The notes: a model not told the origin generated them from the letters alone. Shown: positions 6,412 through 57,641, counted from the first letter of the stretch. The stretch is DNA of 64,000 bases from Acidobacteriota bacterium (GCA_046733875.1 JBKPQB010000028.1:42870-106869); one strand, 5' to 3'. Numbers and translations are program-made.

Positions 6412-6499
6412 CGGAGTGATGCAGCCGCGATGAAAGCCGGTCTGACCAGCGCATGCCGCCGGTGCTCGACGGGCTCGGTGCGGATCCCGACTGAAACGC

Positions 6500-7972
6500 T
6501 CAGAGGTCGCGTTCGTCGGGAGGGCCTTTCAGGCCCTCGGTTCGCCTCTTCTTGAGCGCCGCTCCCCGGACCAGCAGCGCGGCAGCAAACCATGCGGCAA
6601 TGAGCGCAACCGGGTAGGCAAAGCCCCGTGGAAACGTGACGATGAGCGCGGCGAACCCCAGCAGGAGCAGCCCCGCGATCATCGCGATGTGGGCCTCGAC
6701 GGGCTCGAGCACCCGCCGATTCGTAATCGCAGCCGTCACGGTGTTGCCGATGCGTACCGCGCCGCTCACTGCACGCCCGCTGCTTCCACCAGCGCGGGCG
6801 CGCGGCGTGCTGCGCGACATGCCGGGCGCCTTGACGCGGTTGCGTGCATCGAGGACGACTTCCGTCGCGTTCGTGAGATCAGCGAGGAACATGGCCTCGA
6901 CGGCGCGCGCGAACGGCTCGTCCTCCACGATGACATCGAGTTCGCGATTCCCCATCCAGCTCGCAAGGTTCAGGTTCGTCGATCCAACCCGCGCCCACCG
7001 CCCGTCTGCCGCGGCGGTCTTCGCGTGCAGCATCGATCCGTTCCACTCGAATACGCGAACGCCGGCTTCGAGCAGCGGCCGATAGCCGGCGCGTGAGAAC
7101 AGCCGGAGGAGAGGGATGTCGGACGATCCGGGGACGAGCAGTCTGACGTCCACGCCGTCGCGCGCCGCGGCGCACAGCGCCTGCACGTACGGCGTGGTGC
7201 CCGCAAAGTACGCGTCCGTGAGCCACAGCGTGCTCCTGGCCATCGCGGCGACGAGCTGATCGACGCGAAACAACCCCGCCGTGTTGGGGACCGTCGCGAC
7301 CACACGGACGGAGATGTCGCCGGCAGGAGGCTGGCGCTCGGACGGCGGCGGGGTCTCGAGCGCGAAGGGCTCGCCTGCCGCCGACCACGCGTCCGCGAAC
7401 GCGCGCTCGCAGTCTTCGACCGCGGGCCCGCGCAGCTCGACGCCCGTGTCGCGCCACGGCTCGAAGCCACGCGACGGATTGCCGACCCATGCCTCGCCGA
7501 CGCACAACCCGGTCACGAACGCGACCGACCGATCGACGCAGATCATCTTGCGATGATCGCGGCTCAGCCACCCGAGCGGACGGTCGAACCGCGGCGGGTT
7601 GTAGCAGCGGACTGCGACTCCGCCTGCGCGCAGGCGGTTCCAGAACGCTCGCGATGTCTTGTTGAACCCGCCCATCCAGTCGTACAGCAGCCGGACCGTC
7701 ACGCCTTCGCGCGCCTTCGCCAGCAGCGCGTCGGCGAAATGGCGGCCCTGCTGGTCCTCGTGGACGATGTACATCTCGAAGTGGATCGTCCGGCGCGCCG
7801 AGCGAATCGCGTCGAGCCAGCGTGGGTAGTTCTCGGCGGCGTCTCTCAGCAGCGTGACGCTGTTGTGATCGCGCAAGGGGGCGCCGGATGCGCGGGAGAA
7901 CGCCTGATCGGCGAGCTGCCGGACGAGGAGCGTCCCTGCGGGCTCCGTCGAGGTGAGTGCGCTGCGGATCAT
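6500..7972 (-). CDS. Phospholipase D superfamily protein, cardiolipin synthase-like, with C-terminal transmembrane segments
   Basis: There are two HKD motifs: [18 protein letters not shown] and [21 protein letters not shown]. The hydrophobic C-terminus is [19 protein letters not shown]...[15 protein letters not shown] chose the start at ATG 7972 (MIRSALTS...). Confidence 0.8.
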
Positions 7973-12405: not shown

Positions 12406-12532
12406 GTCAAACCCCTAGCGTGTGGGTGTCGAGCACGGGGCTGATTATCGCCGAACGGATACCCAAGTCAAACGTCATGGGCCTTCGCCGCTCTGCCGCT
12501 GCTGGTAAGATTCGCACTCGAAATCACCGCTC

Positions 12533-12931
12533 ATGCCTTATTCGGACCGAACCGTGCTCGTCGGCCAGGCGCTTTCGCATTTCGCAATCACCGGACGTCT
12601 GCGCGCCGGCGGGATGGGGGAAGTGTGTCGGCGACCGACAACACCCTCGGCCGCGAGGTGCCATCAAGGCCGAAGTGGCGCGGAGACAGCAAGGAGCTGT
12701 ATTACGTGGCGCCGAACCGTAAGCTGATGGCCGTACAGATTCTCCCCGGCAACGAGCTCGCGGTCAGGCTCCCGAAGCCACTTTTCGCGATCGGCGATCT
12801 CGAATCCGACTACGACGATTACCCGCCCGCCGGACGGGCAGCGATTCCTCGTCAAGCTACCGATTGAACCCGTCGAAACCGTGCCCATCCACCTGATCCT
12901 GCACTGGGACCCGCCGAACGCCTCGCGGTAA
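12533..12931 (+). pseudogene. Remnant of a Ser/Thr protein kinase-TolB/WD40-like propeller gene (large internal deletion plus frameshifts)
   Basis: Three frames together give the fragments LVGQALSHFAITGRLRAGGMGEV | TDNTLGREV(AIK) | PKWRGDSKELYYVAPNRKLMAVQILPG...LPKPLFAI | DGQRFLVKLPIEPVETVPIHLILHWDPP*. The first part is the kinase glycine loop up to the VAIK lysine region. It is joined directly to the last blades and tail of the propeller. Compare the intact paralogue at 49340..52000 (GIGGMGEVYRARDPHLRREVAIKVL). Confidence 0.65.
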
Positions 12932-13031
12932 ACCCCTCCGCCCCGAGACGATGCGTCCGCAGGCGCACTCGGAAATTGGGGTATGATCCCAATTCTCTCC
13001 GTCGCGGTCGACCGTCACCTGGTGAACGGCG

Positions 13032-13454
13032 ATGCTTTTCCCTATGGCCACTGTCCTCATCGCCGACGACTCCCCCACGATCCGGCGGATGGTCCGTTTC
13101 TCGCTGAACACCGTGCCGGGCCTCAGCTTCCATGAGGCCGCGACGGGGCTGGAGGCGATTGAAACGCTGGTCATCCAGCCCGCCGATCTGATCGTGCTCG
13201 ATTTGAACATGCCGGATATGCACGGGCTCGACGTGCTGAAATTCGTCCGGTCCCAGGCTTCATTGAAGAATCTCCCCGTCGTCGTGCTCACGACGCGCGG
13301 CGACGAGGCAAGCCGGGAGGCGGCGCTTGCCGCGGGGGCGACGATCTTCCTGGCGAAGCCCTTCTCGCCCACGGCCCTTGCGCGGGACGTGCGGACGCTG
13401 CTGGGCGTGGCCGGGACCGTGACTGCGCCGGTGCACCGGGAGGAGCGTTCGTGA
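13032..13454 (+). CDS. cheY: CheY-like single-domain response regulator
   Basis: Receiver-domain motifs present are VLIADDSPTIRRMV, DLIVLDLNMPDMHGLDVL, VVVLTTRGD and FLAKPF. An alternative start lies at 13044. The stop overlaps the cheA GTG start (GTGA). Confidence 0.85.
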   Translation: MLFPMATVLIADDSPTIRRMVRFSLNTVPGLSFHEAATGLEAIETLVIQPADLIVLDLNMPDMHGLDVLKFVRSQASLKNLPVVVLTTRGDEASREAALAAGATIFLAKPFSPTALARDVRTLLGVAGTVTAPVHREERS

Positions 13455-15460
13455 CCGACCGCGAACCGGGCGCACCGGAAGACTTCATCGCCGGTTTTAT
13501 CGAAGACTACTTCGCCGAATGCGAAGAGCACCTCGCGATCGTGCGCCGCGGGCTGCTCGCGCTGGAACGCTCCGACGACGGCGCGGCCGAGGCCGGCGTG
13601 CTCGACGAGCTCTTTCGCAGTTTTCATTCGCTGAAAGGCATTTCCGCGATGGTCGACGTGCGCGAGGCGGAGCGCGTCGCGCATGAACTCGAAGCCTACC
13701 TGCGGCGCCTGCGGGATCGCGAGCTGACGCTCGGATCCGAGGCCGTGTCGGTGCTCATCGACAGCACCGCCGTCCTCGAAACCGTGATCGCCGCCCGGCG
13801 AGCGGGCGCGCCGCCGCCGTCGATTGCAGAGGCGGTGCGACGGCTCCGGACACTGACGCTCAGCGCGCGTGCCGGCGGTCCGGAGGCTGAAACTGCTTCG
13901 CGTGCGTCATCGAAATCCAGGAACTGGCGGTTCACGTTCGTACCCTCCCCGGCGCTGGTCGATCGAGGCATCAAGGTGGACACGATTCGCGCACGCCTCG
14001 CGGGGGTCGGGCGCATCATCCGCGCTGCTCCGTACGTCACACCCGGTGCGGGCATCGTGTTCGAGTTCGTTGTCTCGAGCGCCGCGGATTCGTCCGCATT
14101 CGACGAGTGGCGGAACGATGGCCTCACGTGGGAGCCGCTGGAACCGGCGGCTGCGGCACCAATGGAAAGCGACGGGGCCCTCCCGACGGCGGCGCTGCCC
14201 GAGAGTGTGATTCTGGCGCCTTCTCATTACGTCCGCGTCGATCTCGGCCGGCTCGACGAGGTGATGCGCCGCGTTGGCGATCTCGTCATCACGCGCGCAC
14301 GCCTCGAGGAGCTTCTCGCGCACCTCGAGGGCGCGATTCCCTCGACCGAACGGCGCACGCTGCAGGAGTCGATGCTCACGTTCGAGCGGCACCTGCGCCG
14401 CCTGCGGCACGACGTGATGCGCTTGCGGCTGGTCCGCGTCGATGAGATCTTCCGGCGCATGCCGTTCGTGGCCCGCGATGTGGCGCGCGATCTCGGAAAG
14501 CACGTGCGGGTCGCGCTCAGCGGCCCCGAGACGGAGATCGACAAGTTTCTCGTCGAACGCATGATGGACCCCGTCCTGCATCTCGTGCGCAACGCCGTCA
14601 GCCACGGCATCGAGACGCCGGAACGCCGCACCGCCGCCGGAAAGTCCGCGGAAGGCACCATCACGCTGAACGCGTCGACCTACGGTGAGATGGTCGTGTT
14701 GCAGATTGCCGATGATGGAGCCGGCATCGACGCCGCATCCGTGGTCGAGAGGGCACAGAGCGCCGGTCTGGCGATACCGCAGGGGCCGATCGACGCCGCC
14801 GCATTACTCGATCTGATTTGCGAACCGGGCCTCTCGACGCGCGACGAGGCGGATCGCGCGAGCGGCCGAGGCTTCGGCATGTCGGTCGTGCGGACGACCG
14901 TCCGCGAGCTGGGCGGCGCGATGACGCTGCAGAATGAGCCCGGACGCGGCACGACGTTCCGCATCACACTGCCGCTCACGCTCGCGATCACGGAGGCCCT
15001 CATCGCCGTCGTCGGCGGTCAGCGCTTTGCCGTTCCGCAAAGCACGGTTGAGGAGGTCATCGAGATCGATGAAACCCTCGTGCGGCGAACGGAACGGATC
15101 GAGCTGATTCCCTATCGCGGCCGATCGCTGCCGTTGGTACGGCTCAGCGGTGTGTTCGGGCTCGACGCCAACGGTTCCATGAGGCGGCACGCGTTCGTCC
15201 TGGGTACGGGCCAGGACGCCGTCGCCCTGACCGTCGATCGAATTCTCGGGCAGCGTCAGATCGTCGTGAGGACGATGGGCGACGCGCTGCTGAAGGTCGA
15301 CGGCATCAGCGGCGCGACCGACCTCGGCGACGGCCGTGTCGTGCTCATTCTCGACGCCGCGGCGCTCGCGCGCAGCGCTCGTAGCGTGCCGCGGCCCGTC
15401 TTGCCGCCGCGCCCGATCGGCGCCGCGGCCGAACAGTCCAGCAGCGGAGCGATCGCATGA
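13451..15460 (+). CDS. cheA: Chemotaxis histidine kinase CheA
   Basis: The HPt motif is FRSFHSLKGISAMV. The HATPase region contains HLVRNAVSHGIE, DDGAGID and GRGFGMSVV. The C-terminal CheW-like domain reads QRFAVPQSTVEEVIEI. The GTG start is preceded by AGGAG. Confidence 0.9.
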   Translation: MTDREPGAPEDFIAGFIEDYFAECEEHLAIVRRGLLALERSDDGAAEAGVLDELFRSFHSLKGISAMVDVREAERVAHELEAYLRRLRDRELTLGSEAVSVLIDSTAVLETVIAARRAGAPPPSIAEAVRRLRTLTLSARAGGPEAETASRASSKSRNWRFTFVPSPALVDRGIKVDTIRARLAGVGRIIRAAPYVTPGAGIVFEFVVSSAADSSAFDEWRNDGLTWEPLEPAAAAPMESDGALPTAALPESVILAPSHYVRVDLGRLDEVMRRVGDLVITRARLEELLAHLEGAIPSTERRTLQESMLTFERHLRRLRHDVMRLRLVRVDEIFRRMPFVARDVARDLGKHVRVALSGPETEIDKFLVERMMDPVLHLVRNAVSHGIETPERRTAAGKSAEGTITLNASTYGEMVVLQIADDGAGIDAASVVERAQSAGLAIPQGPIDAAALLDLICEPGLSTRDEADRASGRGFGMSVVRTTVRELGGAMTLQNEPGRGTTFRITLPLTLAITEALIAVVGGQRFAVPQSTVEEVIEIDETLVRRTERIELIPYRGRSLPLVRLSGVFGLDANGSMRRHAFVLGTGQDAVALTVDRILGQRQIVVRTMGDALLKVDGISGATDLGDGRVVLILDAAALARSARSVPRPVLPPRPIGAAAEQSSSGAIA

Positions 15461-15954
15461 CGAGCGGCGCGACCTACATCCTTTTCTCCATCGCAGGTAC
15501 GACGTACGGCATTCGAAGCGAGGAGGTCCGGCACATCGAGATGGTCGAGCAGATCACGCCCGTGCCGAACGCCAGCCGAGACGTGGACGGCGTCGTGTTC
15601 TCCCGGGGGCAGATTGTGCCCGTGGTCAACATGCGCAGCCGATTTGGCTTCGAGCGCCTTCCGCACGACCTCGCGACCCGGCTCCTCGTGGTACAGGCGC
15701 GGGAACGGTGGGTCGGTCTGCTCGTCGACAGCGCGCGCGAATTCGTGCGCGTTCCCGCATCAGCGATTCAGCCGCCGGGACATGCCATGGCCGACGCGAG
15801 ATATCTCGACGGAGTCGCGACGCTCGGCGAGCGGCTCGTGCTCCTGGTCAAGGTCGAAGCACTCCTGGAGGGATCCGTCCTGGAGACGCCCGCCGCCGCT
15901 GGAACGCCCGACGTGATCGCAGCGTCAGCACCAACCGCACATCTCAGAGCCTAG
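15457..15954 (+). CDS. cheW: CheW coupling protein
   Basis: The sequence YILFSIAGTTYGIRSEEVRHIEMVEQITPVPNASRDVDGVVFSRGQIVPVVNMRSRFG is typical of CheW. An ATGA overlap joins it to the cheA stop. Confidence 0.9.
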   Translation: MTSGATYILFSIAGTTYGIRSEEVRHIEMVEQITPVPNASRDVDGVVFSRGQIVPVVNMRSRFGFERLPHDLATRLLVVQARERWVGLLVDSAREFVRVPASAIQPPGHAMADARYLDGVATLGERLVLLVKVEALLEGSVLETPAAAGTPDVIAASAPTAHLRA

Positions 15955-15969
15955 AACAAGGAGACGGTC

Positions 15970-18114
15970 ATGGCATCGCGCCGCAACGGGATCAACGGAA
16001 AGCGTGTCGAGGCAGTCGAGGCGGGCCGCACAAACGGCAGACGTGCGAATGGTGTCGATCCAGTCGTGCTGCGTGAAGAGGCCGACTCCATTACGAAGAC
16101 GGCCCACACGATCGCGCGCGTGGCGCAGGGCGTACTGGAAGGCGCCGAGAGCCAGGTGCGATCGCTCGAGGATGCGGTGAACGGCGGCACGCAGATGGCG
16201 GCGTCGCTGACGGACACCGCACGCCAGGCGGAATCCGTCGCCGGATCCGCCGAGGAGCTCGCGTCCTCCATCAACGAGATGGCGGCGTCGATCGAGCAAG
16301 TGACGGCAAGTACTGCCAGCCTTGCCGGATCCGTCCGCGATACGGCCGCGGCGATCCAGCAGGGCGACGCCGCGGTCAAGAGCGTGACGCGCATTGCGGA
16401 ATCGATGGCGACCTCGGCCCAGCAGGTGACCGCGTCGATGGCGTCGATGGTGTCTTCAATCCGGCGCGTCACTCTTGACGGCGAAACGCTCGCCTCTTCC
16501 GTCAACGAGACGGCGGCGGCGATCGAAGAGATCACCGTGTCGGTGCAACGCGTCGCCGGCAACGCGGACGATCTCGCCGCGGCGGCGGAAGAGACCTCGT
16601 CGGCGATCAACGAGACCGCAGCGTCGATCGAGGAAGTCACGGCGATGACCGAGTCGCTGGCGACGTCCATCGAGCAGAACGCGACATCCACCGAGCAGTT
16701 GGCCCGGTCAGTGGAAGCGGTCGCCCAGAACGGACAGCGCATCAGCGAAGCCGCCGCGGTCGCCGCGAGCGGCGCCACCGAGCTCGATCGATCGGCGGAG
16801 TCGGTCGCCGCGCTCGCCAGACAGGCCGACGAGATCACCAGGCGCGTGGCACGCGACGCGGAGGAAGGCGCCGGTGCGATCCAGAAATCCATTCATGGTT
16901 TCGGCCGCGTCCGCGAATCGATGACGAAGTCGAGCGGCGTCATTCGCGACATGGGGAAACGCGCCACCGACATCGGCACGATCGTCAACACGATCAATCT
17001 CATCGCCGAGCGCACGAACCTGCTGTCGCTGAACGCGTCGATCGAAGCCGCCCGCGCGGGCGACGCCGGTCGGGGCTTCGCGGTGGTGGCCGAGGAGATT
17101 CGCAACCTCGCGGATCGGGCGGCGAAGGCGACGGCCGACATCGATGCGATCATTAGGGCCCTGCAGGAGGTGGCGCAGGAGGCGGTTACCGCATCGTCGG
17201 ACGCGCTGCGCACGGCCGACGAGAGCAGCACGCTCGCGGAGGGGGGCCGCGCGGGGCTGCAGAAGATTCTCTCCGGCATCAACGAGTCTGCACAGATCAG
17301 CGGGCAAATCGCGCGCGCAACCGAGGAACAGCGGGATGCGGCGCGCTCCGTTGTAAGCGCGATTACGAGCACGGCCGAACAGGCCCGCCACGTGGCCACC
17401 TCGACCGCCGAACAGCGAACGTCTGTGACTTCGATCGTGCAGGCGAACACCGCGATGCGCAAGACTGCTCAGGAAGTCCGGAAGGCGATCGGGGAACAGG
17501 CGCGAGCCGCGCGAGACATCCTGAAGGCCGCGCAGAGCACGAAAGAGCTCTCGACGCACGTTCGACGGGCAACCTCGGAGCAGGCGAAAACGGCCCAGCA
17601 GATCGGACAGGTGACGGACTCGATGCGGCGCACGGCCGCGAGCACCGCGCGGGCCCTCGCGGAGCAGAGTACGGCCGGCGATCAGGTCTCGAGCGCCGCG
17701 GAAGGGCTCGCTCGCATGATTTCGACGGTGACCAGCGCCATGGGGGAGCAGGCCACCGCGATGAACCAGATCGCAAAGGGGGCCGAGATCGTGCGGGTCC
17801 AGTCCGATCAGACGGCAAAGGCGCTCAAGGAACAATCCCGCGCAGTGAAGGACATCTCCGACGCCGCGACCAGCACCGCGAGACAGATCAAGCTCATCAC
17901 CACGGCGAATCGGGAGCATTCGGTTGTATCCGCGCAGCTTCTCAACACGCTGAAGCAGATCCGCGAGATCACGGACCGCAACGCCCACGGCGTCCAGGAG
18001 ACACGCGGCGGCACCAACGATCTCCTGCAGCGCGCCGCGGCGCTCGCGTCGATCGCCGAAGGCGGGACAGGACGCCACACCCGCGGAAACGGTGCACATC
18101 GCGGTGGGAGATAG
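15970..18114 (+). CDS. Soluble (no TM segment seen) methyl-accepting chemotaxis protein with an unusually long helical N-terminal region
   Basis: The highly conserved signalling hairpin is [40 protein letters not shown] recognised no hydrophobic stretch. An AAGGAG RBS lies upstream. Confidence 0.85.
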
Positions 18115-20938
18115 CACCCGGGACCGAGCGTCCCGCGATGCCGTGCCGACCGCGTCGGGAATGGGTGTCTTCACGACAGACACTTCTCTGATCGTTCGTA
18201 CGTGGGACGGCTGGCTGGCGGAAACAACGGGCATTCCGTCCGATGCGGCCCGCGGACGCGCGCTCGCTGAGCTCATTCCGGATCTGGCAGATCGAGGACT
18301 GATCGCCGCGTTCGACCAGGTACTCTCCCGCGGCGTCGTGGAGATTCTCGCGCCGGCATTTCACCGCTATCTGATCGCGTGCCCGCCAGCCACGGAGTCG
18401 ACGCGATTCGATCGCATGCAGCAGCGTGTGACGATTGGCCCGCTGCGCGAGGACGGGCAGGTGATCGGGACGATCGTCGCGGTTGAAGACGTGACGGCGC
18501 GTCTCGAACACGAGCGGGAGCTGGCCGCGCAGCTGGCCAGCGCCGATCCGGGCGTGCGGCTGCGTGCCACCCAGGCGCTCGCGGACAAGGCGCTCGTCGG
18601 ACCCAATCCCCTGCTCGGCGCAATCGGCGACGAGGATTGGCGCGTTCGCCGTGCGGCCGTCGCTGCGCTCAGCCGCCGAAGCTCGGCCCAGGTGATCGGC
18701 GCCGTGCTCGATGCGCTGCGAGACGAGCATCACAATTTCAGTGTTCTCAGCAGCGCAATCGAGCTGCTTGCCACGGGCGAGACCGATGTCGTCGAGCCCC
18801 TCATCGAGCTGCTGCGCGAAGCCCATCCTGACCTGCGTCTCCAGGCGGCCCTGGTGCTCGGCGAACGGGGCGACGCTCGCGCGGTACCGCCGCTCATCGA
18901 GACGCTCGCCGAGGCCGACGACAATCTCCGCTTTCACGCGATAGAGGCGCTGGGCAAGCTGAAAGCGCCGGCGGCGGTCGAGCGCTTGATCGGCATTGCC
19001 GAATCGGGCGATTTCTTCCTCGGATTTCCTGCTCTCGATGCGCTTTCGCGCATTGGCGATTCGACGATCGCCCCGCGCCTCGTTCCGCTGCTGGCGCACG
19101 AACTCCTGCGCGGTCCGGTCGCCGACGTCCTCGGCGCGCTCGGGGACGACGATGTGGTCGAGCCGCTGACGCGGCTGCTCAACGAAGCAATGACGCCAAC
19201 GGAGATCGTGGCGGAGGCGCTCGCGCGCGTCGCCGACCGCTTCGAACGCCGCTACGACCATGGAGAGCACATCGCGGATCTCGTTCGCGCAACGATCTCT
19301 GCAACGGGCACGCAGAACCTGCTCGACGCCGTGCAGCACGCCCGGGCGGATACGCTGCCGTCGATCGCCAAGGTCCTCGCGTGGCTCGAAGGACCCGCCG
19401 TCGATCGCGCGCTGACGTTTCTGCTCGGCCAGCCCTCGGTGCGCGCGAAGGCCGTCGAATACCTCGTACGGCAGGGCCCGCGCGTGGTGGATCTGCTGAT
19501 CGATCAGTTGCGCGCGGACGATCTCGATACGCGACACGCCGCGGTGGCCGGGCTCGGGAGAATTGGCGACCGGCGCGCGACCCCAGCGCTGCTGGCCGTT
19601 CTGGCCGCTGATCCGGCCCTCACCATTGCGGCGGCGGGCGCGTTGGGCCGGATCGGTGACGGCCGCGCCTTCGAGGCGCTCATCGGCCTGGTCGGTGACG
19701 AGAATCCCGCCGTCCGTCAGGCCGTCATCGCCGCGCTGAACTCGATTGGACATCCCGAGATGGGCGGGCGCACGGCATTGCTGCTGCGCGATCCACGGCC
19801 GCACGTGCGCGAATCTGCGGTACGAATTGCGGGATATTTCGGCTATCGCGAATGCGCGGACGATCTCCTCGCGCTCTGTCGCGACGCCGATCCATTGGTG
19901 CGGCGCGCCGCGATCGAGCATCTCGCCTTTCTGGACGACCAACGCATATTCGACACGCTCCTCGCGGCGCTGAGCGATGCCGACGCCAGGACTCGCGCCG
20001 CGGCGGTACAGGCCATCGCCCGGCTCGATCGCCACGCCGCGGCATCCCTTGTGCCCGCGCTGTGCGATGGTGACGCGTGGGTGCGTTACTTCGCCGCTCG
20101 CGCGATGGGCGAGCATCGTCACGCTCCGGCGCTCGACGACCTCACGCGCGTCGCGCTGGACGATCCTGCCGGACAGGTGCGATTGGCGGCAATCGATGCC
20201 TTGGGCCGCATCGGGAGTCCGGTGGCGGTGCCGGCGCTCGCCGCACTCAGCATGTCGGGCGATCAGGAGCGTGCGATTGCGGCCATCACGGCGCTCGGCC
20301 GCATTTCGCACGAGGACACGTGGCCGCCGCTGCAGACTGCGCTGCGATCCGCGGACGAAGATGGACGGGCTGCCGCGGCTGAATCAATCTCGCGCCTTGG
20401 GGGGAAGGCGGCCATCGAGCTGCTCGAGTGGTCCGCGGCGGCCGACAACAGTCTCAGGGTCGCGTCGGCAGCCGTGGAAGGGCTGGCGACCATCGCCAGG
20501 GATGAAACGATCGGCGCAGCCGCCGTACACGCGTTGATCGATCTCGCGGCGGAAGCGTCTCGGAGAGATTTGGTCGTTCCGGTGCTCGCAGCTCTGCCCG
20601 CTGACGCGATTTCGTGGCTCGCAGAGGGGCTGCGAGATCCGCATACCCAGGTTCGTGTCGCGGTCGTCCAGGCGCTTGGAGGCATGCGGCGAGCGGAAGC
20701 GTCGCGGCGGCTGGAGTCGGCGCTGGACGACAGCGCGACCGAGGTCCGAACCGCTGCCCTCGCCGAGCTGCGCCATCTCGGCACACGCGCAATGGAGCGG
20801 CGCGTGGTCACGCTCGCGCGCACGGATCCGAACCCGATCGTTCGGAGGGCTGCGCTTGCCGTCCTCAAGGCCGCATCCGGCGGGCGTGACGAGCACGCGT
20901 GGCCCGCGTTGGAACCGCGGACCGGCGCGGAGCCCTGA
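18092..20938 (+). CDS. PAS domain + multi-HEAT-repeat (PBS-lyase-type) protein embedded in the che operon
   Basis: The N-terminal PAS-like region is [25 protein letters not shown]...[21 protein letters not shown]. At least 15 HEAT-like units of the form D-x-x-x-VR-x-x-A-x-x-AL-G follow. Examples are [39 protein letters not shown] and [14 protein letters not shown]. The start is uncertain: GTG 18092 overlaps the MCP stop, and an ATG lies at 18161. Confidence 0.8.
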
Positions 20939-20941
20939 GCC

Positions 20942-21844
20942 ATGGCGTTCGACGCGGATTCGCTCGGAATTTCCCGCGCCTCGACGCGCCTGCTGCGCGA
21001 TTTGATCCACGAGCGGCTCGGCCTGTACTTCGACGACGCCCGCTTCGACCAGCTTGCGGATCGCCTCGCGCCCGTGCTGGTGCAGCGGGGATTCGGGTCG
21101 CTGCTCGACTACTATTACCTGTTGAAGTACGACGCGGAGGCAGACGCCGAATGGCCACGCGTGATGGACGCCCTCGCCGTCAACGAGACGTACTTCTGGC
21201 GCGAGATCGATCAGATCCGCGCGGTCGCGGACGTGGTGCTGCCCCAGTGCCTGGAAGCGGCCGCAGGACAGCCACTGCAGATCTGGAGCGTTCCGTGCGC
21301 GACCGGAGAGGAGCCGCTCACGATAGCCATGGTGTTGGAGGAGGGCGGCTGGTTCGCGCGTGCGCCGATCCGGATCATCGGGAGCGACGCCAGTCCTGCA
21401 GCGATTCACAAGGCGCGTCGCGGACTCTATCGCACGCGGTCGTTCCGCAATCTGCCCGAATCGCTTCGCGAGCGCTATTTTCAGAAAGATGGCGACGAGT
21501 GGCGCATCGATGACGCGATCCACCGCCGCATCACGTGGGACCTCGTGAACCTGCAGAATCCGGCGGACGTGGCACGATGGGGCGCATCGCCGATCGTGTT
21601 CTGTCGCAACGTGTTCATTTATTTTTCCGAAACGAGCATCCGGCGGACGCTCGACCTCTTCGCCGGCTGCATGCCGCCGCGCGGGTATCTCTGCATCGGT
21701 GCGTCGGAGTCGCTGCTCCGAATCACGACCAGCTTCGAGCTGCAGGAGATTGGGGGGGCGTTCATGTACGTTCGCCGCGCCAGCAGGGACGAAACGCCCG
21801 CCACAACAGCGCCCGCGCGCGGAACCGCACGATGGAACGAGTAA
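20942..21844 (+). CDS. cheR: Chemotaxis protein methyltransferase CheR
   Basis: Matching segments are TYFWREIDQI, LQIWSVPCATGEEPLTIAMVL, IIGSDASPAAIHKARRGLY and VFCRNVFIYF. Confidence 0.9.
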   Translation: MAFDADSLGISRASTRLLRDLIHERLGLYFDDARFDQLADRLAPVLVQRGFGSLLDYYYLLKYDAEADAEWPRVMDALAVNETYFWREIDQIRAVADVVLPQCLEAAAGQPLQIWSVPCATGEEPLTIAMVLEEGGWFARAPIRIIGSDASPAAIHKARRGLYRTRSFRNLPESLRERYFQKDGDEWRIDDAIHRRITWDLVNLQNPADVARWGASPIVFCRNVFIYFSETSIRRTLDLFAGCMPPRGYLCIGASESLLRITTSFELQEIGGAFMYVRRASRDETPATTAPARGTARWNE

Positions 21845-22875
21845 CGAGAGTCCTGGTAGTCGACGACTCGGCGTACGTCCGCAAGACGATCAAGCAGATT
21901 CTCTCCCGGAGTCCGTCGCTGGAAGTGATCGCGACGGCCCGCGGTGGAGACGAGGGTCTCGAGCTCGTCCGCGAACTGCGCCCCGATGTCGTCACGGCTG
22001 ATTTGATCATGCCGGACATGGACGGGGCGGAGTTCACACGCCGCGTCATGGAAGAGCAGCCGGTACCCGTCGTCATCGTCAGCATCGCCTCGGAGTCGAG
22101 CGAGCGCGTGCTCGCGGCGCTGGATGCCGGCGCGATCGATTTCGTCCAGAAGCCGACGGCGCTTGCGACGGAGAAGGTGTTTGAGATGTCCGAGGAGCTA
22201 ATCAGCAAGGTCACGGCGGCCGCACACGCGCCGATCGGAAGAACGCGCACGGTTGCCTCCGCGCCCGCGCGTTCACGATCCTCCGCGGTCGCCGTCGCGC
22301 GCGGCCTCGTCGACATCGTGGTGATTGGCATTTCGACCGGCGGCCCGCAGGCGCTCAAGCTGCTGATTCCGCGGCTCGCTGCGGATCTGCCCGTACCGGT
22401 GGCCGTCGTGCTCCACATGCCTGTGGGCTACACGGAGCTGTTCGCGCGGCGACTGGACGAGATTTCGACCCTGTCGGTTCGCGAGGCGGCGGAAGGCGAC
22501 GAGGTTCGTCCGGGCGTCGTGCTGATTGCGCCCGCGGGACGGCACTTGACGTTCCGCAAGGCGCCTGACCGGCGCGTCCTCGCACACCTCGATCTGCGTC
22601 CGCTGGATGCGTCGCACCGGCCATCTGCCGACGTGTTGTTTCATTCGGCCTCGGAGGTATATGGTGAGCGTGTTCTTGGCATCGTGATGACAGGAATGGG
22701 CTCGGACGGCCGCGAAGGATCCGCGTGGATCAAGGCGGCCGGCGGTACCGTATTGACCGAATCGGAAGAGAGCTGCGTCGTGTACGGCATGCCGCGATCG
22801 GTCGTCGAGGCCGGATTGAGCGACGGCACTGTGCCTCTCGATGCGATGGCGGACGCGATCCAGGAGCGCCTGTGA
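21832..22875 (+). CDS. cheB: Chemotaxis response regulator protein-glutamate methylesterase CheB
   Basis: I trimmed track ORF 21535..22875 to the ATG at 21832 (MERVTRVLVVDDSAYVRKTIKQIL). The receiver domain is followed by the esterase motifs VVIGISTGGPQAL, VLHMPVGYT and VMTGMGSDG. The start overlaps the cheR end by 13 nt. Confidence 0.9.
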   Translation: MERVTRVLVVDDSAYVRKTIKQILSRSPSLEVIATARGGDEGLELVRELRPDVVTADLIMPDMDGAEFTRRVMEEQPVPVVIVSIASESSERVLAALDAGAIDFVQKPTALATEKVFEMSEELISKVTAAAHAPIGRTRTVASAPARSRSSAVAVARGLVDIVVIGISTGGPQALKLLIPRLAADLPVPVAVVLHMPVGYTELFARRLDEISTLSVREAAEGDEVRPGVVLIAPAGRHLTFRKAPDRRVLAHLDLRPLDASHRPSADVLFHSASEVYGERVLGIVMTGMGSDGREGSAWIKAAGGTVLTESEESCVVYGMPRSVVEAGLSDGTVPLDAMADAIQERL

Positions 22876-23240
22876 CGCCGAAGGTGCTGATCGTCGACGA
22901 TTCAGGGCTCGCGCGCCGCAACCTGCGGCAGATCATCGAGCCTGCCGGATATCAGATCGTCGAGGCCGAGGACGGGCTGATCGCGCTCGAGAGGTACTTC
23001 CTTGAAAAGCCGGACGTCGTGCTGCTCGATCTGGTGATGCGTGGGATGTACGGGCTGGACGTGCTGAAGAAGCTGCGTGAGCTCGACCCGGGCGCGCGGG
23101 TGCTCGTGGTGTCTGCGGACGTGCAGAGCTCGTCGCACGCGCTGGCGGAGCAAGCGGGCGCGAAAGGATTCATCAACAAGCCATTCGATCGCGATGAAAT
23201 TCTGGGCGCGCTCCAGACCGCCGTCGCCGGAGTGAAGTAA
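22872..23240 (+). CDS. Second CheY-like single-domain response regulator
   Basis: The GTG start overlaps the cheB stop (GTGA). The sequence reads VTPKVLIVDDSGLARRNLRQII...DVVLLDLVMRGMYGLDVLKKL...VLVVSADVQ...GFINKPF. Confidence 0.8.
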   Translation: MTPKVLIVDDSGLARRNLRQIIEPAGYQIVEAEDGLIALERYFLEKPDVVLLDLVMRGMYGLDVLKKLRELDPGARVLVVSADVQSSSHALAEQAGAKGFINKPFDRDEILGALQTAVAGVK

Positions 23241-23851
23241 TGGTGCTGACGGTCGAACAGCGCGACGCGCTGACGGAGCTCATCAACATTGGTTTCGGGC
23301 GCGCGGCTGCGTCGCTGTCGCGGCTCACCGGTCATCGCGTCCAGCTCGAAGTGCCGCGTGTGATGATTTGTCCCGTCGGCGAGCTGGGCGACACACTGCG
23401 TCCGTATATCGACGGCGACATCGCGAGCGTCCATCAGGTCTTCTCCGGTCCCGTCGCAGGCGATGCCTTTCTCGTGCTCGATCAACGCAGCGGGGGAATG
23501 CTGAAGGAGCTGCTCACGAACGAGCCCGCGCTGCCGCTCTCGATTGATGCGTCTGCGCGCGAGGTCATCGCGGAGGTGGGCAACATCCTCCTGAACGCGT
23601 GCCTCGGCATGTTCGGCAACCTGCTCAGGGTGCAGGTCTCCTTCGCAGTCCCCCACGTCACGCTCGAAGGGCTCGAGGCGCTGGTCGAATCGGTGATGGT
23701 CGAACGCGAGGAGCTGCGCTATGCGCTCGTCGTGCACGCGGGCTTCCGCCTCAAGAACAGCTCCGTCACGGGATACCTCATCATGGTCTTGAGCGTCGCA
23801 TCCATCGATCGGCTGATACGCGCGATCGATGCGTGGGAGCCCGGTCGGTGA
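23240..23851 (+). CDS. cheC: CheC-family CheY-P phosphatase
   Basis: Two CheC-type motifs are present: DALTELINIGFGRAAASLS and EVIAEVGNILLNACLG (D/S-x3-E-x2-N). The start overlaps the upstream stop by 1 nt (TAATG). Confidence 0.75.
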   Translation: MVLTVEQRDALTELINIGFGRAAASLSRLTGHRVQLEVPRVMICPVGELGDTLRPYIDGDIASVHQVFSGPVAGDAFLVLDQRSGGMLKELLTNEPALPLSIDASAREVIAEVGNILLNACLGMFGNLLRVQVSFAVPHVTLEGLEALVESVMVEREELRYALVVHAGFRLKNSSVTGYLIMVLSVASIDRLIRAIDAWEPGR

Positions 23852-23906
23852 CGGCGGCCGTCACGATCATGCTGCGCGGGCGCGCCGACACGCCCGGGGC
23901 GCATCG

Positions 23907-25514
23907 ATGAGCGCGCATGTCCTGGATCCGGCGATCGCTCGCTGGATTGCCGAATTCGCCGAGCAGGGCATCTTCACCACCGATCATCAACTCGTCGTCA
24001 CGAGCTGGAATTGCTGGCTCGAACAGCACGCGGGGCGCGCATCGGCCGACGTGGTTGGCCGTCCACTCTTCGACGTATTTCCGGATCTCGTCTCACGTGG
24101 CCTCGACGAGGCGTACCACGAGGCCATCGCCGGTCACGGCTACCTTCTGTCGCACCTGCTGCACCGCTACCTGCTGCCGATGCCGGGGCGCGGCGGTCAG
24201 CCGCTCTTTGCCAACATGCCGCAACGCGCGCGCATCGCGCCCCTGGTGTTGGAGGATCGCATCGTCGGCACGATCACCGTCATCGACGACGTCAGCGAGC
24301 GCGTGGCATCCGAGCACGAACTGCGCAAGCAGATCGACGCGCAGCTCGCCGCCAGAACCGCGGCAGAGAAGGCGCTGCGCGTCAAGGATGACTTCCTCGC
24401 GACGCTTTCGCATGAAATCAGGACTCCTCTGAATGCCGTGCTCGGCTGGGCGCGCATCCTGATCGAGCGCGAGCTCGAGCCGCAGCTCCTCGCGCGCGCC
24501 GTGGAATCGATCTTCCGCAACGCGACCGTGCAGGCACGAATGATCGATGATCTGCTCGATACCGCGCGGATCATGGCAGGCAAGCTGCGCCTGCAGATGC
24601 AGCCGGTCGATCTCGTGGCCGTGTCGATCGCGGCGCTCGACGTGATGGGGCCGTCGATCGAGGCGAAGAAGATTCAGCTCAGACGATACCTCGACCCGGC
24701 GCTTCAAAGCGTAGCGGGCGATCCCGATCGGCTTCAGCAGATCGTCTGGAATCTGCTGTCGAACGCGGCCAAGTTCACGGAGGCGGGCGGCACGATCGAG
24801 CTGCGGCTCGAGCAGCTCGCCGGCCGCGTGCGGATCGTGGTCAGCGACACGGGAAAGGGGATCGACGCCGAGTTCCTTCCGTTGATCTTCGACCGCTTCC
24901 GCCAGGCCGACACGTCCAGCAGCCGGCGCGAAGGGGGCCTTGGCCTCGGGCTCGCGCTCGTCAGGGAGCTCGTGGAGCTGCACGGAGGGGTCGTCCGCGC
25001 CGACAGCGCCGGTACCGGGCAAGGCTCGACGTTTGTCGTCGAAATCCCGACGAGCCCCTCTCACCAACTTCAGGGGCAGACGGGCGATGCCTCGTCAGCG
25101 ACGCCGCACGACGCGCTCGCGGGGATGCACGTGCTCCTCGTCGAGGACGAAGACGATGCGATGGCGCTGCTCTCCGCCACGCTTCACGACACGCGCGCAC
25201 GCGTGACGACGCTGACATCCTGCGCCGCCGCACTGGATTACATACGCAGTGCGGCAGACGATGAGCGTCCCCACGCGCTCGTGTCGGATATCGGAATGGC
25301 GCCCCAGGACGGCTACCATCTGATCGCGGAGGTCCGGAAGCTGCCAGCCGACCGGGGCGGGAGCATTCCGGCCGTCGCCGTCACGGCCTACGCGTCGGCA
25401 ACGGATCGGCAGCGAGCGCTGGACGCGGGGTACCACGAACACGTTCCGAAACCCGTGGACCCCGCCGCCCTCGTCGCGGCGATCGCCCGAGCGATACGCG
25501 GTTCGGGCGTCTGA
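23907..25514 (+). CDS. Hybrid sensor histidine kinase / response regulator with N-terminal PAS domain
   Basis: I trimmed the ORF to the ATG at 23907. The PAS region is GIFTTDHQLVVTSWNCWLEQHAG. The H-box is FLATLSHEIRTPLNAVLGW. The HATPase region contains NLLSNAAKFT, DTGKGID and GGLGLGLALV. The C-terminal receiver contains VLLVEDEDD, LVSDIGMAPQDG and HVPKPV. Confidence 0.9.
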   Translation: MSAHVLDPAIARWIAEFAEQGIFTTDHQLVVTSWNCWLEQHAGRASADVVGRPLFDVFPDLVSRGLDEAYHEAIAGHGYLLSHLLHRYLLPMPGRGGQPLFANMPQRARIAPLVLEDRIVGTITVIDDVSERVASEHELRKQIDAQLAARTAAEKALRVKDDFLATLSHEIRTPLNAVLGWARILIERELEPQLLARAVESIFRNATVQARMIDDLLDTARIMAGKLRLQMQPVDLVAVSIAALDVMGPSIEAKKIQLRRYLDPALQSVAGDPDRLQQIVWNLLSNAAKFTEAGGTIELRLEQLAGRVRIVVSDTGKGIDAEFLPLIFDRFRQADTSSSRREGGLGLGLALVRELVELHGGVVRADSAGTGQGSTFVVEIPTSPSHQLQGQTGDASSATPHDALAGMHVLLVEDEDDAMALLSATLHDTRARVTTLTSCAAALDYIRSAADDERPHALVSDIGMAPQDGYHLIAEVRKLPADRGGSIPAVAVTAYASATDRQRALDAGYHEHVPKPVDPAALVAAIARAIRGSGV

Positions 25515-37984: not shown

Positions 37985-39826
37985 TCACTTCGAATAGGCG
38001 ACGCCTCCGCTCGCCTGATCGATCGTGACGAACGCATCGACGTGATTGACCTCATAACGAACGGTCGGACCATTCGCCCACCGAACCTCCACGCTCGATA
38101 CCGCGGTCGCTGCGCCGAGACCGAAATGGACGCGAAGGTCCGATTGGGAGATTTGGCCGCGGCCGCTCGCGACCTCACCCCTGTGTCGGACGCCAGCAGC
38201 CGTCACGAACACGACCGAACCGATCGCGTCACGCGGACACCTTCTGTCCGGATCTCCCTTGAGATGCACCGTAAGCCAGTGTCCGGCGCTGCCGCCTCCT
38301 TCATTGCGCGCGAGCGTCGGCCCACCGTCGAGATTGTTGATGACGATGTCCTCGCCGCCGTCGTTATCGATGTCTCCAACGGCCGATCCTCTCGACACGC
38401 GCGGCGTCGCGAGGACGTCTCCTGCCGCCCGGCCCACGTCCTCGAATCTCGCGCCTTTGATATTGCGAAACAACAGCGCGCGCTGTGCGTACGACGTGTT
38501 CCAGCGCAGCCTGTCCGCTGCCGGATAGATGTGGCCGTTCACGACGAGCAGGTCCAGCCATCCATCATTGTCGTAATCGAGAAAATCGGTGCCCCAGCCG
38601 AGAAAGGGTGTGCTCGGAAGCGCCAAGCCGACGGCGGTCGTCACATCCGTAAGAATCTTGCCGTCGTCGTTGTGATAGAGGACGTTGAAGTCGTTCGCAA
38701 AATTCGTGACGTGCAGATCGTCACGGCCGTCGTTGTCGTAGTCGCCGACAGCGACGCCCATGTGCGCCTGTTCGCGGCCCTGCGCATCGAGTGCCGCACC
38801 CGACGGATAGCTGACGTCCTCGAACTGCCCGTCGCCCCGATTGTGATACAGGAAATTCGGACCTGAATCGTTCGCGACGAACAGATCCGGCCGACCATCG
38901 TCGTCCATGTCGAACCACGCAACGCCGAATCCGTACAAGCCGTCGGGATCTGCGACGCCGGCCTCGCGGCTGATCTCCGTAAACGTTCCGTCGTGATTGT
39001 TTCGATACAGATGGTCCGAGGCTCCCTTCAGGCCGCGGGGACCGCACATCACGCGCTCGCTGCGGTACGTGCAGAACGGCGTGCCGGGCGAGTACGATGC
39101 GCCGAGGCGCGAGGAACTTTCGGACGCGTGTGGCTGGGGCTCGGCCTCGCGCTGACCCGGAGCGGCGGCCGCCGGCGTCGCGGGAGGCGGGAGTCGCTGA
39201 AGATCGAGCGCGACGTAGCCGGCAACGAATAGATCCAGCCATCCATCGCCGTCGTAATCGCCGAACGCACATCCAGTGGACCAGCTGTCCGTCGCGACGT
39301 GGGCGGCCTCCGCCACATCGCTAAACGACCGACCGCTCTCATTATGATAGAGACGGTTCTTGCCGAAGTTGGTGACGTAGAGATCTTCGTAGCCGTCATT
39401 GTCGAAGTCGCCCACGCAGACGCCTTGTCCCCACCGCTCGTTCGCAACGCCTCGTTCCGCGGTCACGTTCGTGAACGTTCCGCCGCCGTTGTTGTGAAAG
39501 AGCGCGGCTGCGGGCGCGGGTGTGCCACCCTCCACGCGGTCCAGCGTCGAGCCGTTCACGAAATAGATGTCGAGCAAGCCATCATTGTCGAAATCCCACA
39601 GCGCGACGCCGGAGCCCGTGCCCTCGATGATGTAGTTCTTCTCAGGGCTGCCGGACACGTGGCGGAAGCCTGACACGCCCGCGCCCATCGTCAGGTCGCG
39701 GTATGTCACACCGCTCGCGGCCAACGGCGATGGGGGCGGCACGCGCGTCGTTGGAGGAAGATCTTGCGCACGCGAGACGACCGCAGCTGCGATCGCGCAG
39801 ACAGCGGCCAGGCGGACACTCATCAC
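37985..39826 (-). CDS. Secreted CRTAC1-family protein (FG-GAP/VCBS repeats + ASPIC/UnbV C-terminal domain)
   Basis: A signal peptide is present. Repeated motifs include GVALWDFDNDGLLDIYFVNG, GDFDNDGYEDLYVTNFG, GDYDGDGWLDLFVAGY, FDMDDDGRPDLFVAND, GDYDNDGRDDLHVTNF and LDYDNDGWLDLLVVNGH. The C-terminal region is NRRCPRDAIGSVVFVTAAGVRHRGEV..GRGQISQSDLRVHFGLG. Confidence 0.85.
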   Translation of the reverse strand: MMSVRLAAVCAIAAAVVSRAQDLPPTTRVPPPSPLAASGVTYRDLTMGAGVSGFRHVSGSPEKNYIIEGTGSGVALWDFDNDGLLDIYFVNGSTLDRVEGGTPAPAAALFHNNGGGTFTNVTAERGVANERWGQGVCVGDFDNDGYEDLYVTNFGKNRLYHNESGRSFSDVAEAAHVATDSWSTGCAFGDYDGDGWLDLFVAGYVALDLQRLPPPATPAAAAPGQREAEPQPHASESSSRLGASYSPGTPFCTYRSERVMCGPRGLKGASDHLYRNNHDGTFTEISREAGVADPDGLYGFGVAWFDMDDDGRPDLFVANDSGPNFLYHNRGDGQFEDVSYPSGAALDAQGREQAHMGVAVGDYDNDGRDDLHVTNFANDFNVLYHNDDGKILTDVTTAVGLALPSTPFLGWGTDFLDYDNDGWLDLLVVNGHIYPAADRLRWNTSYAQRALLFRNIKGARFEDVGRAAGDVLATPRVSRGSAVGDIDNDGGEDIVINNLDGGPTLARNEGGGSAGHWLTVHLKGDPDRRCPRDAIGSVVFVTAAGVRHRGEVASGRGQISQSDLRVHFGLGAATAVSSVEVRWANGPTVRYEVNHVDAFVTIDQASGGVAYSK

Positions 39827-40764
39827 GGAAGCTTGGCGGTCGTCTCGCCGGATCGCTGGGTCCGCGCGAGCGCGGTCGCACGATCGAACGCCTGCTGCGC
39901 CTTCGCCGGCTGACCCAGCTTCTGATACGCCCGTCCGAGCACGTAGTAGGTTTCGCGAACCGTTGGCGCGAGCGCCGCCGCGCGCTCGAGTGCCGCGACG
40001 GCCCCGGCGGCATCGCCGATGTGCAGAAGAGAGCCGCCCAATCCAAACTCCGCGGCGGCAGAGCGTGGATCGTACGTCAGCGCTTCGCGAAACGATTCAA
40101 CAGCGCGTGTATGATCGTTCTGCGTCGCCAGGCACACCCCGAGGCCGTACGCCCCGTCGAACGTCACCTTCACGCGCTGCGCACGCTCGTACAGCGTCTG
40201 TGCGTCGGCGCAATTCGATTCCTCGCGACGCAGTCTGGCGTATTCGAGAAGCGCGTCGAGGAGTTCCGGGTCCGCGCGCAGCGCAGCTTCGTACTCCGCC
40301 GCGGCCTCGACGGGCTTCCCCTGGAGCTTGAGCGATCGCCCCATGAGCTGGTGGACTCGTGCGCTGTCCGGCGCAAGCGCATAGACGCGGCCGAACGCCT
40401 GCGTGGCGAGCTCGCCGGATGCGATCCCGAGGAAGTACAGGGCGTCGGTATTCTGTGGATCGATCGCGAGTCCTTCTTCCAGGAGGTCGTATGCCGCCGT
40501 CAGCTCGTTGCGCGCGAGATGCGCGCGCGCGGCCAGCACCAGCATGCGGGCATCGCGCGGGTGCCGCTTCAGGTATTCCTGCGCGACTTGCAGTCCATGC
40601 TCCAGATCGCCGGAATACAGTGCTTTGAAGACTTCCGATGCCGCGCCACCCTGATCCGCGCGCGCCAGCGTGGCCCGCGTCTGGGCGCTCGCGTACCCGG
40701 CCACAGAGATGGCCGCGGCGACGGCGATTCCACACACCATTCGCCCGCGGTGTCCGAAGCTCAC
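39823..40764 (-). CDS. Secreted tetratricopeptide-repeat protein
   Basis: The signal peptide is MVCGIAVAAAISVAGYASAQ. TPR-like A/Y/L periodicity runs throughout (for example YFLGIASGELATQAFGRVYALAPD and AQQAFDRATALA). A 4-nt overlap is present at both ends. Confidence 0.75.
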   Translation of the reverse strand: MSFGHRGRMVCGIAVAAAISVAGYASAQTRATLARADQGGAASEVFKALYSGDLEHGLQVAQEYLKRHPRDARMLVLAARAHLARNELTAAYDLLEEGLAIDPQNTDALYFLGIASGELATQAFGRVYALAPDSARVHQLMGRSLKLQGKPVEAAAEYEAALRADPELLDALLEYARLRREESNCADAQTLYERAQRVKVTFDGAYGLGVCLATQNDHTRAVESFREALTYDPRSAAAEFGLGGSLLHIGDAAGAVAALERAAALAPTVRETYYVLGRAYQKLGQPAKAQQAFDRATALARTQRSGETTAKLP

Positions 40765-44110: not shown

Positions 44111-44187
44111 CCCGTGGTTTCCGGCTTCAGCCGGAAGATCATTTTGCCGCAAAGTATCTTCCGCCTAAAGGCGGAAGCCACGAGGCT

Positions 44188-57603: not shown

Positions 57604-57641
57604 TTTCGATAAACCGCGGGTCCCGTGACGTGGTTCGTATA

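Follow-up and report, generated by a model that had tools for sequence, protein, structure and literature searches.

The outputs of most non-motility chemosensory systems are unknown, and signalling in the Acidobacteriota, which are abundant soil bacteria, is almost unstudied. Here we describe a ten-gene chemosensory (che) operon located at positions 13032-25514 of a 64,000-nucleotide stretch of DNA from an Acidobacteriota bacterium (GCA_046733875.1 JBKPQB010000028.1:42870-106869, hereafter the window), and compare it with the closest described systems, first among them the Che7 cluster of Myxococcus xanthus. This cluster encodes CheY7 (MXAN_6965, 125 amino acids), CheA7 (MXAN_6964, 683 amino acids, with Hpt, dimerisation, HATPase and CheW domains and without a receiver domain), CheW7 (MXAN_6963, 148 amino acids), the methyl-accepting chemotaxis protein (MCP) Mcp7 (MXAN_6962, 821 amino acids, with no transmembrane segment, no HAMP domain and a signalling domain placed mid-protein), CheR7 (MXAN_6960, 273 amino acids) and CheB7 (MXAN_6959, 348 amino acids), while MXAN_6961 sits between mcp7 and cheR7 (PMC3945109). 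Phylogenetically, Che7 groups with Dif and Che8 of M. xanthus (PMC3945109). According to two secondary sources (PMC9040617, PMC11514114), Che7 influences development and stress tolerance and acts via a HEAT-repeat protein, Cpc7, which binds the single-domain response regulator CheY7 (Darnell et al. 2014, J Bacteriol 196:3160, as cited there). In another non-motility system, Che3 of Rhodospirillum centenum, which is involved in the control of cysts, CheA3 phosphorylates the receiver domain of an embedded kinase, CheS3 (PMC3868531).

Pfam and NCBIfam scans of the window identified ten consecutive open reading frames (ORFs) on the plus strand, encoding CheY, CheA, CheW, a soluble MCP, a PAS-HEAT protein, CheR, CheB, a second CheY (CheY2), CheC and a PAS-containing hybrid histidine kinase (Table 1). 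This is the order given by an earlier interpretation of the same DNA made from its letters alone (the sequence-only reading), which had also proposed that the genes are translationally coupled and that a soluble MCP and an embedded PAS-HEAT protein belong to the chemosensory set they encode. Both proposals are supported, and the junction sequences contain all five of the overlaps that it had listed, i.e., GTGA at 13451 (cheY1/cheA), ATGA at 15457 (cheA/cheW), 13 nt at 21832-21844 (cheR/cheB), GTGA at 22872 (cheB/cheY2) and TAATG at 23240 (cheY2/cheC). Elsewhere, 15 nt separate cheW from the MCP gene, which is preceded by an AAGGAG Shine-Dalgarno sequence, 22 nt separate the MCP gene from the HEAT gene when the latter starts at ATG 18137 (a start set by the family consensus MxxxxxxxG), and 3 nt separate the HEAT gene from cheR. 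The longest ORF of the kinase gene begins at ATG 23829, encodes 561 amino acids and overlaps cheC by 23 nt; since the closest kinase orthologues begin MSAHV or MNQDV at the position of ATG 23907, the gene probably starts there (535 amino acids, with a 55-nt gap after cheC), and the annotated start at 23829, together with its apparent overlap with cheC, is probably wrong. The G+C content at third codon positions of the ten ORFs is 0.73-0.86, and a pattern scan of the operon for terminator-like sites found none above shuffle expectation, so that nothing suggests an internal terminator. Because the synteny is conserved in 80 other loci (described below), chance assembly is excluded, and the ten genes constitute a real chemotaxis-like signalling operon.

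Compared with che7, to which the sequence-only reading had likened the operon, genes 1 to 7 agree in order (cheY-cheA-cheW-mcp-HEAT-cheR-cheB, as from MXAN_6965 to MXAN_6959), in domain content and in size (window versus Che7: CheY 140/125, CheA 669/683, CheW 165/148, CheR 300/273 and CheB 347/348 amino acids). Both clusters encode a cytoplasmic MCP with its signalling domain mid-protein and without transmembrane segments or a HAMP domain, a CheA without a receiver domain, and a HEAT-repeat protein between mcp and cheR. The two nevertheless differ in several respects: the MCP has 821 amino acids in M. xanthus and 714 in the window; Cpc7 is described, in the secondary sources, with 27 helices, whereas the window protein has about 50 and an N-terminal PAS domain, here termed PAS*. 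Moreover, the window operon continues after cheB with cheY2, cheC and a PAS*-containing hybrid kinase, whereas the che7 listing has one CheY and no CheC or kinase. In M. xanthus, cheB7 is followed by a desaturase gene, des7. On gene order and architecture the window operon is of the Che7 type, its HEAT protein being likened to Cpc7 by position and repeats, not by sequence, and in the searchable literature we found no account of a ten-gene version that includes cheY2, cheC and a PAS*-effector.

Table 1. Features of the chemosensory operon and of the region directly upstream, in window coordinates.
Feature	Position	Strand	Description
Upstream non-coding stretch	12406..13031		Presumed promoter-bearing; three-frame translation
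cheY1	13032..13454	+	140 aa, single-domain response regulator; Response_reg E 3e-25
cheA	13451..15460	+	669 aa; Hpt, dimerisation, HATPase_c and CheW domains, without receiver domain
cheW	15457..15954	+	165 aa; CheW E 2e-30
Soluble MCP	15970..18114	+	714 aa; MCPsignal E 7e-36
PAS*-HEAT protein	18137..20938	+	933 aa; Pfam
cheR, methyltransferase	20942..21844	+	300 aa; CheR E 2e-44, CheR_N
cheB, methylesterase with N-terminal receiver domain	21832..22875	+	347 aa; NCBIfam CheB 366 bits (cut-off 293)
cheY2	22872..23240	+	122 aa, second single-domain response regulator
cheC, CheC-family CheY~P phosphatase	23240..23851	+	203 aa; CheC Pfam match
Hybrid histidine kinase, PAS*-HisKA-HATPase_c-REC	23907..25514	+	535 aa; start placed from orthologues
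PAS* of the kinase	about 23967-24335	+	Paralogous to PAS* of the HEAT protein

The core proteins carry the features expected of a chemosensory pathway. CheA contains its phosphotransfer (Hpt, P1), dimerisation (P3), HATPase (P4) and CheW-like (P5) domains, and it is accompanied by a CheW adaptor, an MCP with a conserved signalling hairpin, CheR, CheB and CheY proteins with intact phospho-acceptor residues. The active-site residues of CheY1 (D12, D13, D57, T87 and K109) are conserved in 69 orthologues; CheY1 and CheY2, which are 37% identical, both retain the acid pocket as well as the Thr/Ser and Lys residues, and across the two proteins these Asp, Thr/Ser and Lys motifs are kept in 60-69 orthologues. 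CheC matches the NCBIfam model CheC_Thtogales with E = 3e-22, under that model's cut-off, and contains the CheC/CheX/FliY motif D/S-x3-E-x2-N-x22-P twice, once as D9-x3-E13-x2-N16-x22-P39 and once as E108-x3-E112-x2-N115-x22-P138, where the first residue is Glu, not Asp or Ser. The E-x2-N residues of both motifs are conserved in 60 orthologues. The terminal protein has the parts of a hybrid histidine kinase, namely a HisKA H-box, SHEIRTP (H195), a HATPase_c domain and a C-terminal receiver domain with D487 (numbering of the 561-residue ORF), and Pfam detected no Hpt domain in it.

The MCP is soluble, as it has no hydrophobic segment that could serve as a transmembrane helix (maximum 19-residue Kyte-Doolittle mean of 0.82), and neither Pfam nor the sequence itself revealed a recognisable sensor domain in it. 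Its signalling tip lies at residues about 351-381, and both of the arms that flank it consist of tandem repeats, each 56 residues (8 heptads) long and bearing methylation-type EE/EQ motifs, with a heptad periodicity whose strongest autocorrelation is at 56 and 28 residues. The protein is apparently all coiled coil and, judging from its sequence, may as a whole form one hairpin of roughly 100 heptads, for which a single-sequence AlphaFold model, all-helical and of low confidence (predicted local distance difference test, pLDDT, 59.5), gives weak support. Such a hairpin would exceed 64H, to our knowledge the largest MCP class. The length of about 700 amino acids is kept across phyla.

In the PAS*-HEAT protein, PAS* occupies residues about 9-125 (window 18161-18511) and is followed by a solenoid of about 50 helices, modelled by AlphaFold2 with a pLDDT of 93.6 and a predicted template modelling (TM) score of 0.79; in the model the PAS domain spans residues 9-118. 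A Foldseek search of this model against the PDB returned only generic scaffold solenoids (CAND1, SF3B1, karyopherin-beta and PP2A-A), with TM-scores of at most 0.31. Homologues number 1807 at E <= 1e-3, and many of them, from Blastocatellia, Chloroflexota and Oscillatoriales, are ~50% identical over 97% of the length. Within the HEAT-type PAS*, His76 and Cys82 are invariant in 92 sequences (FHxYLIxCPP), and within the solenoid Cys573 and Cys581 (window 19853-19879) are near-invariant; these His and Cys residues may form a cofactor, metal or redox site. The solenoid also contains HEAT_PBS repeats (E = 4e-22), the HEAT-like repeats of the phycobilisome (PBS) lyases, which it shares with CpcE, CpcF and NblB. 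In contrast to these proteins, however, the window protein has a fused PAS domain and three to four times their length, is encoded in a che operon and occurs mostly in non-phototrophs. We rejected its assignment as a phycobilin lyase or NblB, as its scores fall far under the NCBIfam equivalog cut-offs (NblB, 130 of 300 bits; CpcE, 96 of 330; CpcF, 62 of 220).

When the operon's proteins were compared with one another, the sole cross-match outside the receiver domains was between the PAS* of the HEAT protein and that of the terminal kinase, which are paralogues (37% identity over 124 amino acids, E = 3e-25). An alignment of 34 PAS* sequences separates a HEAT-type from an effector-type subgroup, both of which share invariant D7, W15, G58, Q88, D110 and E118 as well as a nearly invariant His; this His is replaced in several cyanobacterial members, and Cys82 of the HEAT type is missing from the effector type. 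Among solved structures, PAS* matches generic PAS domains only, the nearest being the cofactor-free PAS-A/B domains of plant phytochromes and the PAS domain of ThkA, and a profile search of these structures found no cofactor-specific relative. We found no description of this pairing of PAS* domains, in a HEAT protein and a terminal kinase, in the searchable literature.

To see how widely the arrangement occurs, a genome scan with one genome per species was carried out, which found relatives in 234 genomes. The best 80 of the 234 loci, none of them myxobacterial, were compared with the ten window proteins, as were five loci from look-ups of encoding contigs (85 loci in total). The best relative is from an Acidobacteriota metagenome-assembled genome (MAG), whose HEAT protein is 79% identical to that of the window and whose other nine proteins are 75-91% identical. 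The seven-gene core, cheY1-cheA-cheW-mcp-HEAT-cheR-cheB, is kept in this order in all surveyed loci with a long enough contig, across at least six phyla: it is found in Acidobacteriota (Blastocatellia, Pyrinomonadaceae and Vicinamibacterales), Chloroflexota, Cyanobacteria and Desulfobacterota, and also in single MAGs labelled Actinomycetota, Clostridia and Verrucomicrobiota. Downstream genes were counted only in loci with at least 6.5 kb 3' of the HEAT gene. All 39 such acidobacterial loci have cheR-cheB, cheY2 and cheC, and 36 of them a PAS*-effector gene, the three others having what look like fused or fragmented ORFs. The six loci of Desulfobacterota all have cheR-cheB, cheY2 and cheC, with a PAS*-effector in four; among the five of Cyanobacteria, cheR-cheB is present in five, cheC in four, and cheY2 and a PAS*-effector in two each. 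The one locus of Chloroflexota has every one of these genes, and the one of Actinomycetota has cheR-cheB and neither cheY2, cheC nor a PAS*-effector.

Given these counts (39/39 and 36/39), the ten-gene unit is the standard acidobacterial form of a widespread system and not a local oddity. The sequence-only reading had singled out the combination of a PAS-HEAT protein, CheC and a hybrid kinase as an arrangement not known to have been characterised; it is no peculiarity of this genome, being standard in Acidobacteriota and recurring in Cyanobacteria, Chloroflexota and Desulfobacterota, yet experimentally it does appear uncharacterised as far as the searchable literature shows. Across the 80 related loci there is no further conserved flanking gene, e.g., for an Hpt protein or a terminal response regulator, and the only recurring flanking matches are to generic histidine kinases, in 17 loci. 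Culturable carriers of the PAS-HEAT protein include Kamptonema formosum and Oscillatoria acuminata PCC 6304, and in the latter the seven-gene core and a CheC-like gene were confirmed. Two insertions were seen in or beside related clusters: a 23S_rRNA_IVP-family gene (6494-6988) between cheA and cheW in a Chloroflexota locus (L005/L021), and an IS605 OrfB/TnpB-like gene (17962-19692) just downstream of the cluster in O. acuminata (L001).

Outside the Acidobacteriota, the final gene of the operon retains its N-terminal PAS* while the remaining domains vary. Its products include hybrid kinases to which further PAS or GAF domains are added (found in Cyanobacteria, Chloroflexota and Desulfatiglandales), PAS*-PAS-GGDEF proteins (loci L058 and L060), a PAS*-PAS-HD_5 protein of the HD-GYP type (L060), and stand-alone PAS* proteins of 218-224 amino acids (L049 and L056), the one in L049 being encoded directly upstream of a hybrid kinase. 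Among 51 operon-linked PAS* effectors, HisKA and HATPase domains occur in 46 (42 of which also have a receiver domain), GGDEF in two and an HD-type domain in one. The GGDEF effectors of L058 and L060 have neither a kinase nor a receiver domain, which leaves PAS* as the one feature that every effector shares; since these loci nonetheless keep cheY2-cheC, CheY2 must there get its phosphate from CheA. A PAS* search of 1.84 billion cluster representatives returned 521 proteins at E <= 1e-10, in which PAS* nearly always lies at residues about 15-150; of 68 longer matches, 52 are kinases, 42 have GAF domains, 23 a receiver domain and five GGDEF. In the closest relative (L006, an Acidobacteriota MAG), we also noticed two tandem PAS*-kinase genes (15219-18859), compared with one in the window.

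Taken together, these results lead us to favour, with a probability of roughly 60%, a reading of the operon as an acidobacterial, Che7-type, cytoplasmic and non-flagellar pathway that runs from CheA via the CheY proteins and the HEAT scaffold to a PAS*-coupled effector, with CheC resetting it. Going by the roles of their families, the long soluble MCP, CheW and CheA would form cytoplasmic arrays, which CheR and CheB would adapt via the many repeated EE/EQ sites, and CheA~P would hand its phosphate to CheY1, CheY2 and the receiver domain of CheB. By analogy with CheY7 and Cpc7 of M. xanthus, CheY~P would then bind the large HEAT solenoid, and comparative genomics suggests that the shared PAS* couples this CheY-controlled scaffold to an interchangeable effector, which would be a hybrid histidine kinase here and, in other loci, a diguanylate cyclase, a protein of the HD-GYP type, a kinase equipped with additional PAS/GAF domains, or a PAS* protein encoded separately beside a kinase. 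The output would thus be a phosphorelay or a second messenger, not motor switching, and CheC, with both of its active sites intact and its gene translationally coupled to cheY2, would reset CheY~P. Because the kinase has no Hpt domain, its receiver would need an Hpt protein or response regulator encoded elsewhere, or else would exchange phosphate with CheA-P1, which would be akin to R. centenum Che3.

Che3 is comparable in architecture and role, not by sequence relationship: it, too, is a non-motility Che-like operon with a single-domain CheY and an extra PAS-type sensor kinase that has a receiver domain (CheS3). It differs from the window operon in that its CheA3 is a hybrid protein with a receiver domain of its own, and in that it has no HEAT protein, CheC or shared PAS* pair. 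Che3 provides a precedent for a kinase as a downstream element of a Che pathway and demonstrates that non-motility Che systems do undergo rewiring of this sort; it also suggests an additional path by which CheA could reach the receiver of the window's kinase.

We further propose, tentatively and at odds well short of even, that PAS* could be a family-specific docking domain that physically links the CheY-regulated HEAT scaffold to interchangeable effectors, and that it would define a distinct, phylum-spanning chemosensory class with a soluble receptor of roughly 100 heptads and a phosphorelay or cyclic di-GMP (c-di-GMP) output in place of motility. More speculatively still, the His and Cys of the HEAT-type PAS*, placed beside lyase-type HEAT repeats, might bind a tetrapyrrole or bilin, in which case the scaffold would act as a sensor in its own right.

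Several points weigh against the CheA-to-effector pathway. Every step of its wiring is one that we infer; PAS domains can equally bind ligands, and the invariant His and Cys of the HEAT-type PAS* would suit a cofactor. Moreover, in some loci of Cyanobacteria and Actinomycetota no PAS* effector lies near the seven-gene core, and the effector is therefore not obligatory; che7, for which one CheY is listed, may lack the cheY2-cheC-effector module and possibly PAS* as well. The assignment to a class is affected too. A CheA of matching architecture, likened by architecture and size only (667 amino acids), is listed for Pyrinomonas methylaliphatogenes among the proteins of the alternative cellular functions (ACF) class in the consulted part of Table S2 of PMC10782961, but the O. 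acuminata CheA orthologue (636 amino acids) is missing from the ACF rows of that part, and the family may formally belong to an F class. Finally, any pilus or gliding genes elsewhere in the genome lie beyond the reach of the 64-kb window, which also leaves room for a role in surface motility (see below).

With the flagellar F1-type systems of Bacillus and Thermotoga and with M. xanthus Dif, the window operon has in common a two-active-site CheC phosphatase and a CheA without a receiver domain; it differs from them in having a soluble receptor, no CheD or CheV and no nearby flagellar genes. A flagellar F1 system was rejected: although CheC is present, none of the ten genes encodes a CheD or CheV domain, and none of the window's large ORFs matches a flagellar family.

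An alternative to a HEAT protein at the output end is that it serves as the input, with PAS* sensing a cytoplasmic ligand, redox state or light via a cofactor and signalling to the MCP, while the PAS* of the kinase senses the same cue in parallel. We consider this unlikely, although it has several points in its favour: the MCP has no recognisable sensor domain, so that its input must come from elsewhere, the HEAT gene directly follows mcp, His76 and Cys82 are invariant throughout the 92 sequences, and HEAT repeats of the PBS-lyase type, for which the protein gives sub-threshold NblB and CpcE matches, handle bilins in cyanobacteria. However, these matches are far under their cut-offs (130 bits against 300 for NblB), in several cyanobacterial members another residue takes the place of the His, PAS* of the effector type has no such Cys, and the solved PAS domains closest in sequence, i.e., phytochrome PAS-A/B and ThkA, are cofactor-free. 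Furthermore, PMC9040617 and PMC11514114 report the M. xanthus HEAT protein as a partner of CheY7, which places it downstream.

It is less probable still that the operon controls surface motility, i.e., type IV pili or gliding encoded elsewhere, in the manner of Frz, Pil-Chp or the cyanobacterial Tax/Hmp systems. The family is present in gliding filamentous cyanobacteria (Oscillatoria, Kamptonema and Crinalium), and CheC is typical of motility-linked F-class systems. Nevertheless, Pfam scans across the 64-kb window found no flagellar, pilus, gliding or other motility family among its large ORFs, to which extent the statement of the sequence-only reading that no flagellar or pilus genes lie nearby holds, and the 80 related loci have no motility gene conserved at their flanks. 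In addition, the conserved effectors encoded in the operon are kinases and c-di-GMP enzymes, and the characterised relative, Che7, affects development and stress tolerance and not motility, according to the secondary sources. Least probable of all is that cheY2, cheC and the kinase are a separate two-component module on the same transcript, unlinked to the Che core and HEAT protein, in which the kinase phosphorylates CheY2 and CheC dephosphorylates it: a kinase, a single-domain response regulator and a phosphatase would make a complete module, the kinase gene probably stands 55 nt clear of cheC, and the seven-gene core occurs without these genes in some phyla and in M. xanthus, but this explanation is disfavoured by the overlaps of cheY2 with cheB (GTGA) and of cheC with cheY2, by the co-conservation of cheY2-cheC with the core in every acidobacterial locus counted (and of the PAS*-kinase in all but three) as well as across phyla, and by the family-specific PAS* common to the kinase and the HEAT protein, in addition to which the PAS*-GGDEF loci, with no kinase, require CheY2 to draw its phosphate from CheA.

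While nothing in the operon overturns expectations, it can serve as a concrete model, conserved across many lineages, of the output of chemosensory systems unrelated to motility: it is the conserved form of a system found in at least six phyla, for which experimental data come only from M. xanthus Che7, a shorter cluster. In PAS*, the operon has a concrete element through which a link from the Che core and the HEAT protein to an enzymatic effector can be tested, and the ten proteins make a compact set for reconstitution. The soluble receptor, unusually long and made of repeats, is also of interest to the question of how cytoplasmic arrays are built.

As to the surroundings of the operon, no sigma-70 consensus was found on the plus strand upstream of cheY1, a result that is little informative for Acidobacteriota, and Rfam and tRNA scans found no RNA elements or tRNAs in the window. 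Three-frame translation of the 627 nt 5' of cheY1 uncovered the remnant of a decayed, frameshifted Ser/Thr-kinase/PD40 gene (12406-12931), which keeps a kinase-like GGMGEV motif and the C-terminal end ...DGQRFLV...LILHW..., and which is similar to an intact gene at 49340-52000. The upstream genes, on the minus strand, encode a GAF/HATPase_c_2 protein, a heavy-metal P-type ATPase, a PLD-like protein and a glycogen-debranching-type enzyme. Downstream of the operon lie a ferritin/Dps-like gene, a PLP decarboxylase gene, a PadR and MacB/FtsX pair and an amidohydrolase gene, followed farther on by TPR and FG-GAP/ASPIC genes and genes for a CarboxypepD_reg/OMP_b-brl_4 receptor, a Ser/Thr kinase with PD40 repeats and an ankyrin-repeat protein. 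Within this region, the minus strand of 37985-47781 encodes the CarboxypepD_reg/OMP_b-brl_4 outer-membrane receptor (1197 amino acids), three TPR proteins and an FG-GAP/ASPIC protein, a gene content typical of acidobacteria and in keeping with the assignment of the DNA to that phylum. The ankyrin-repeat protein (55603-57783, minus strand) has 726 amino acids, nearly all of them in ankyrin repeats (Ank_2, E = 2e-58), and is large for a free-living bacterium.

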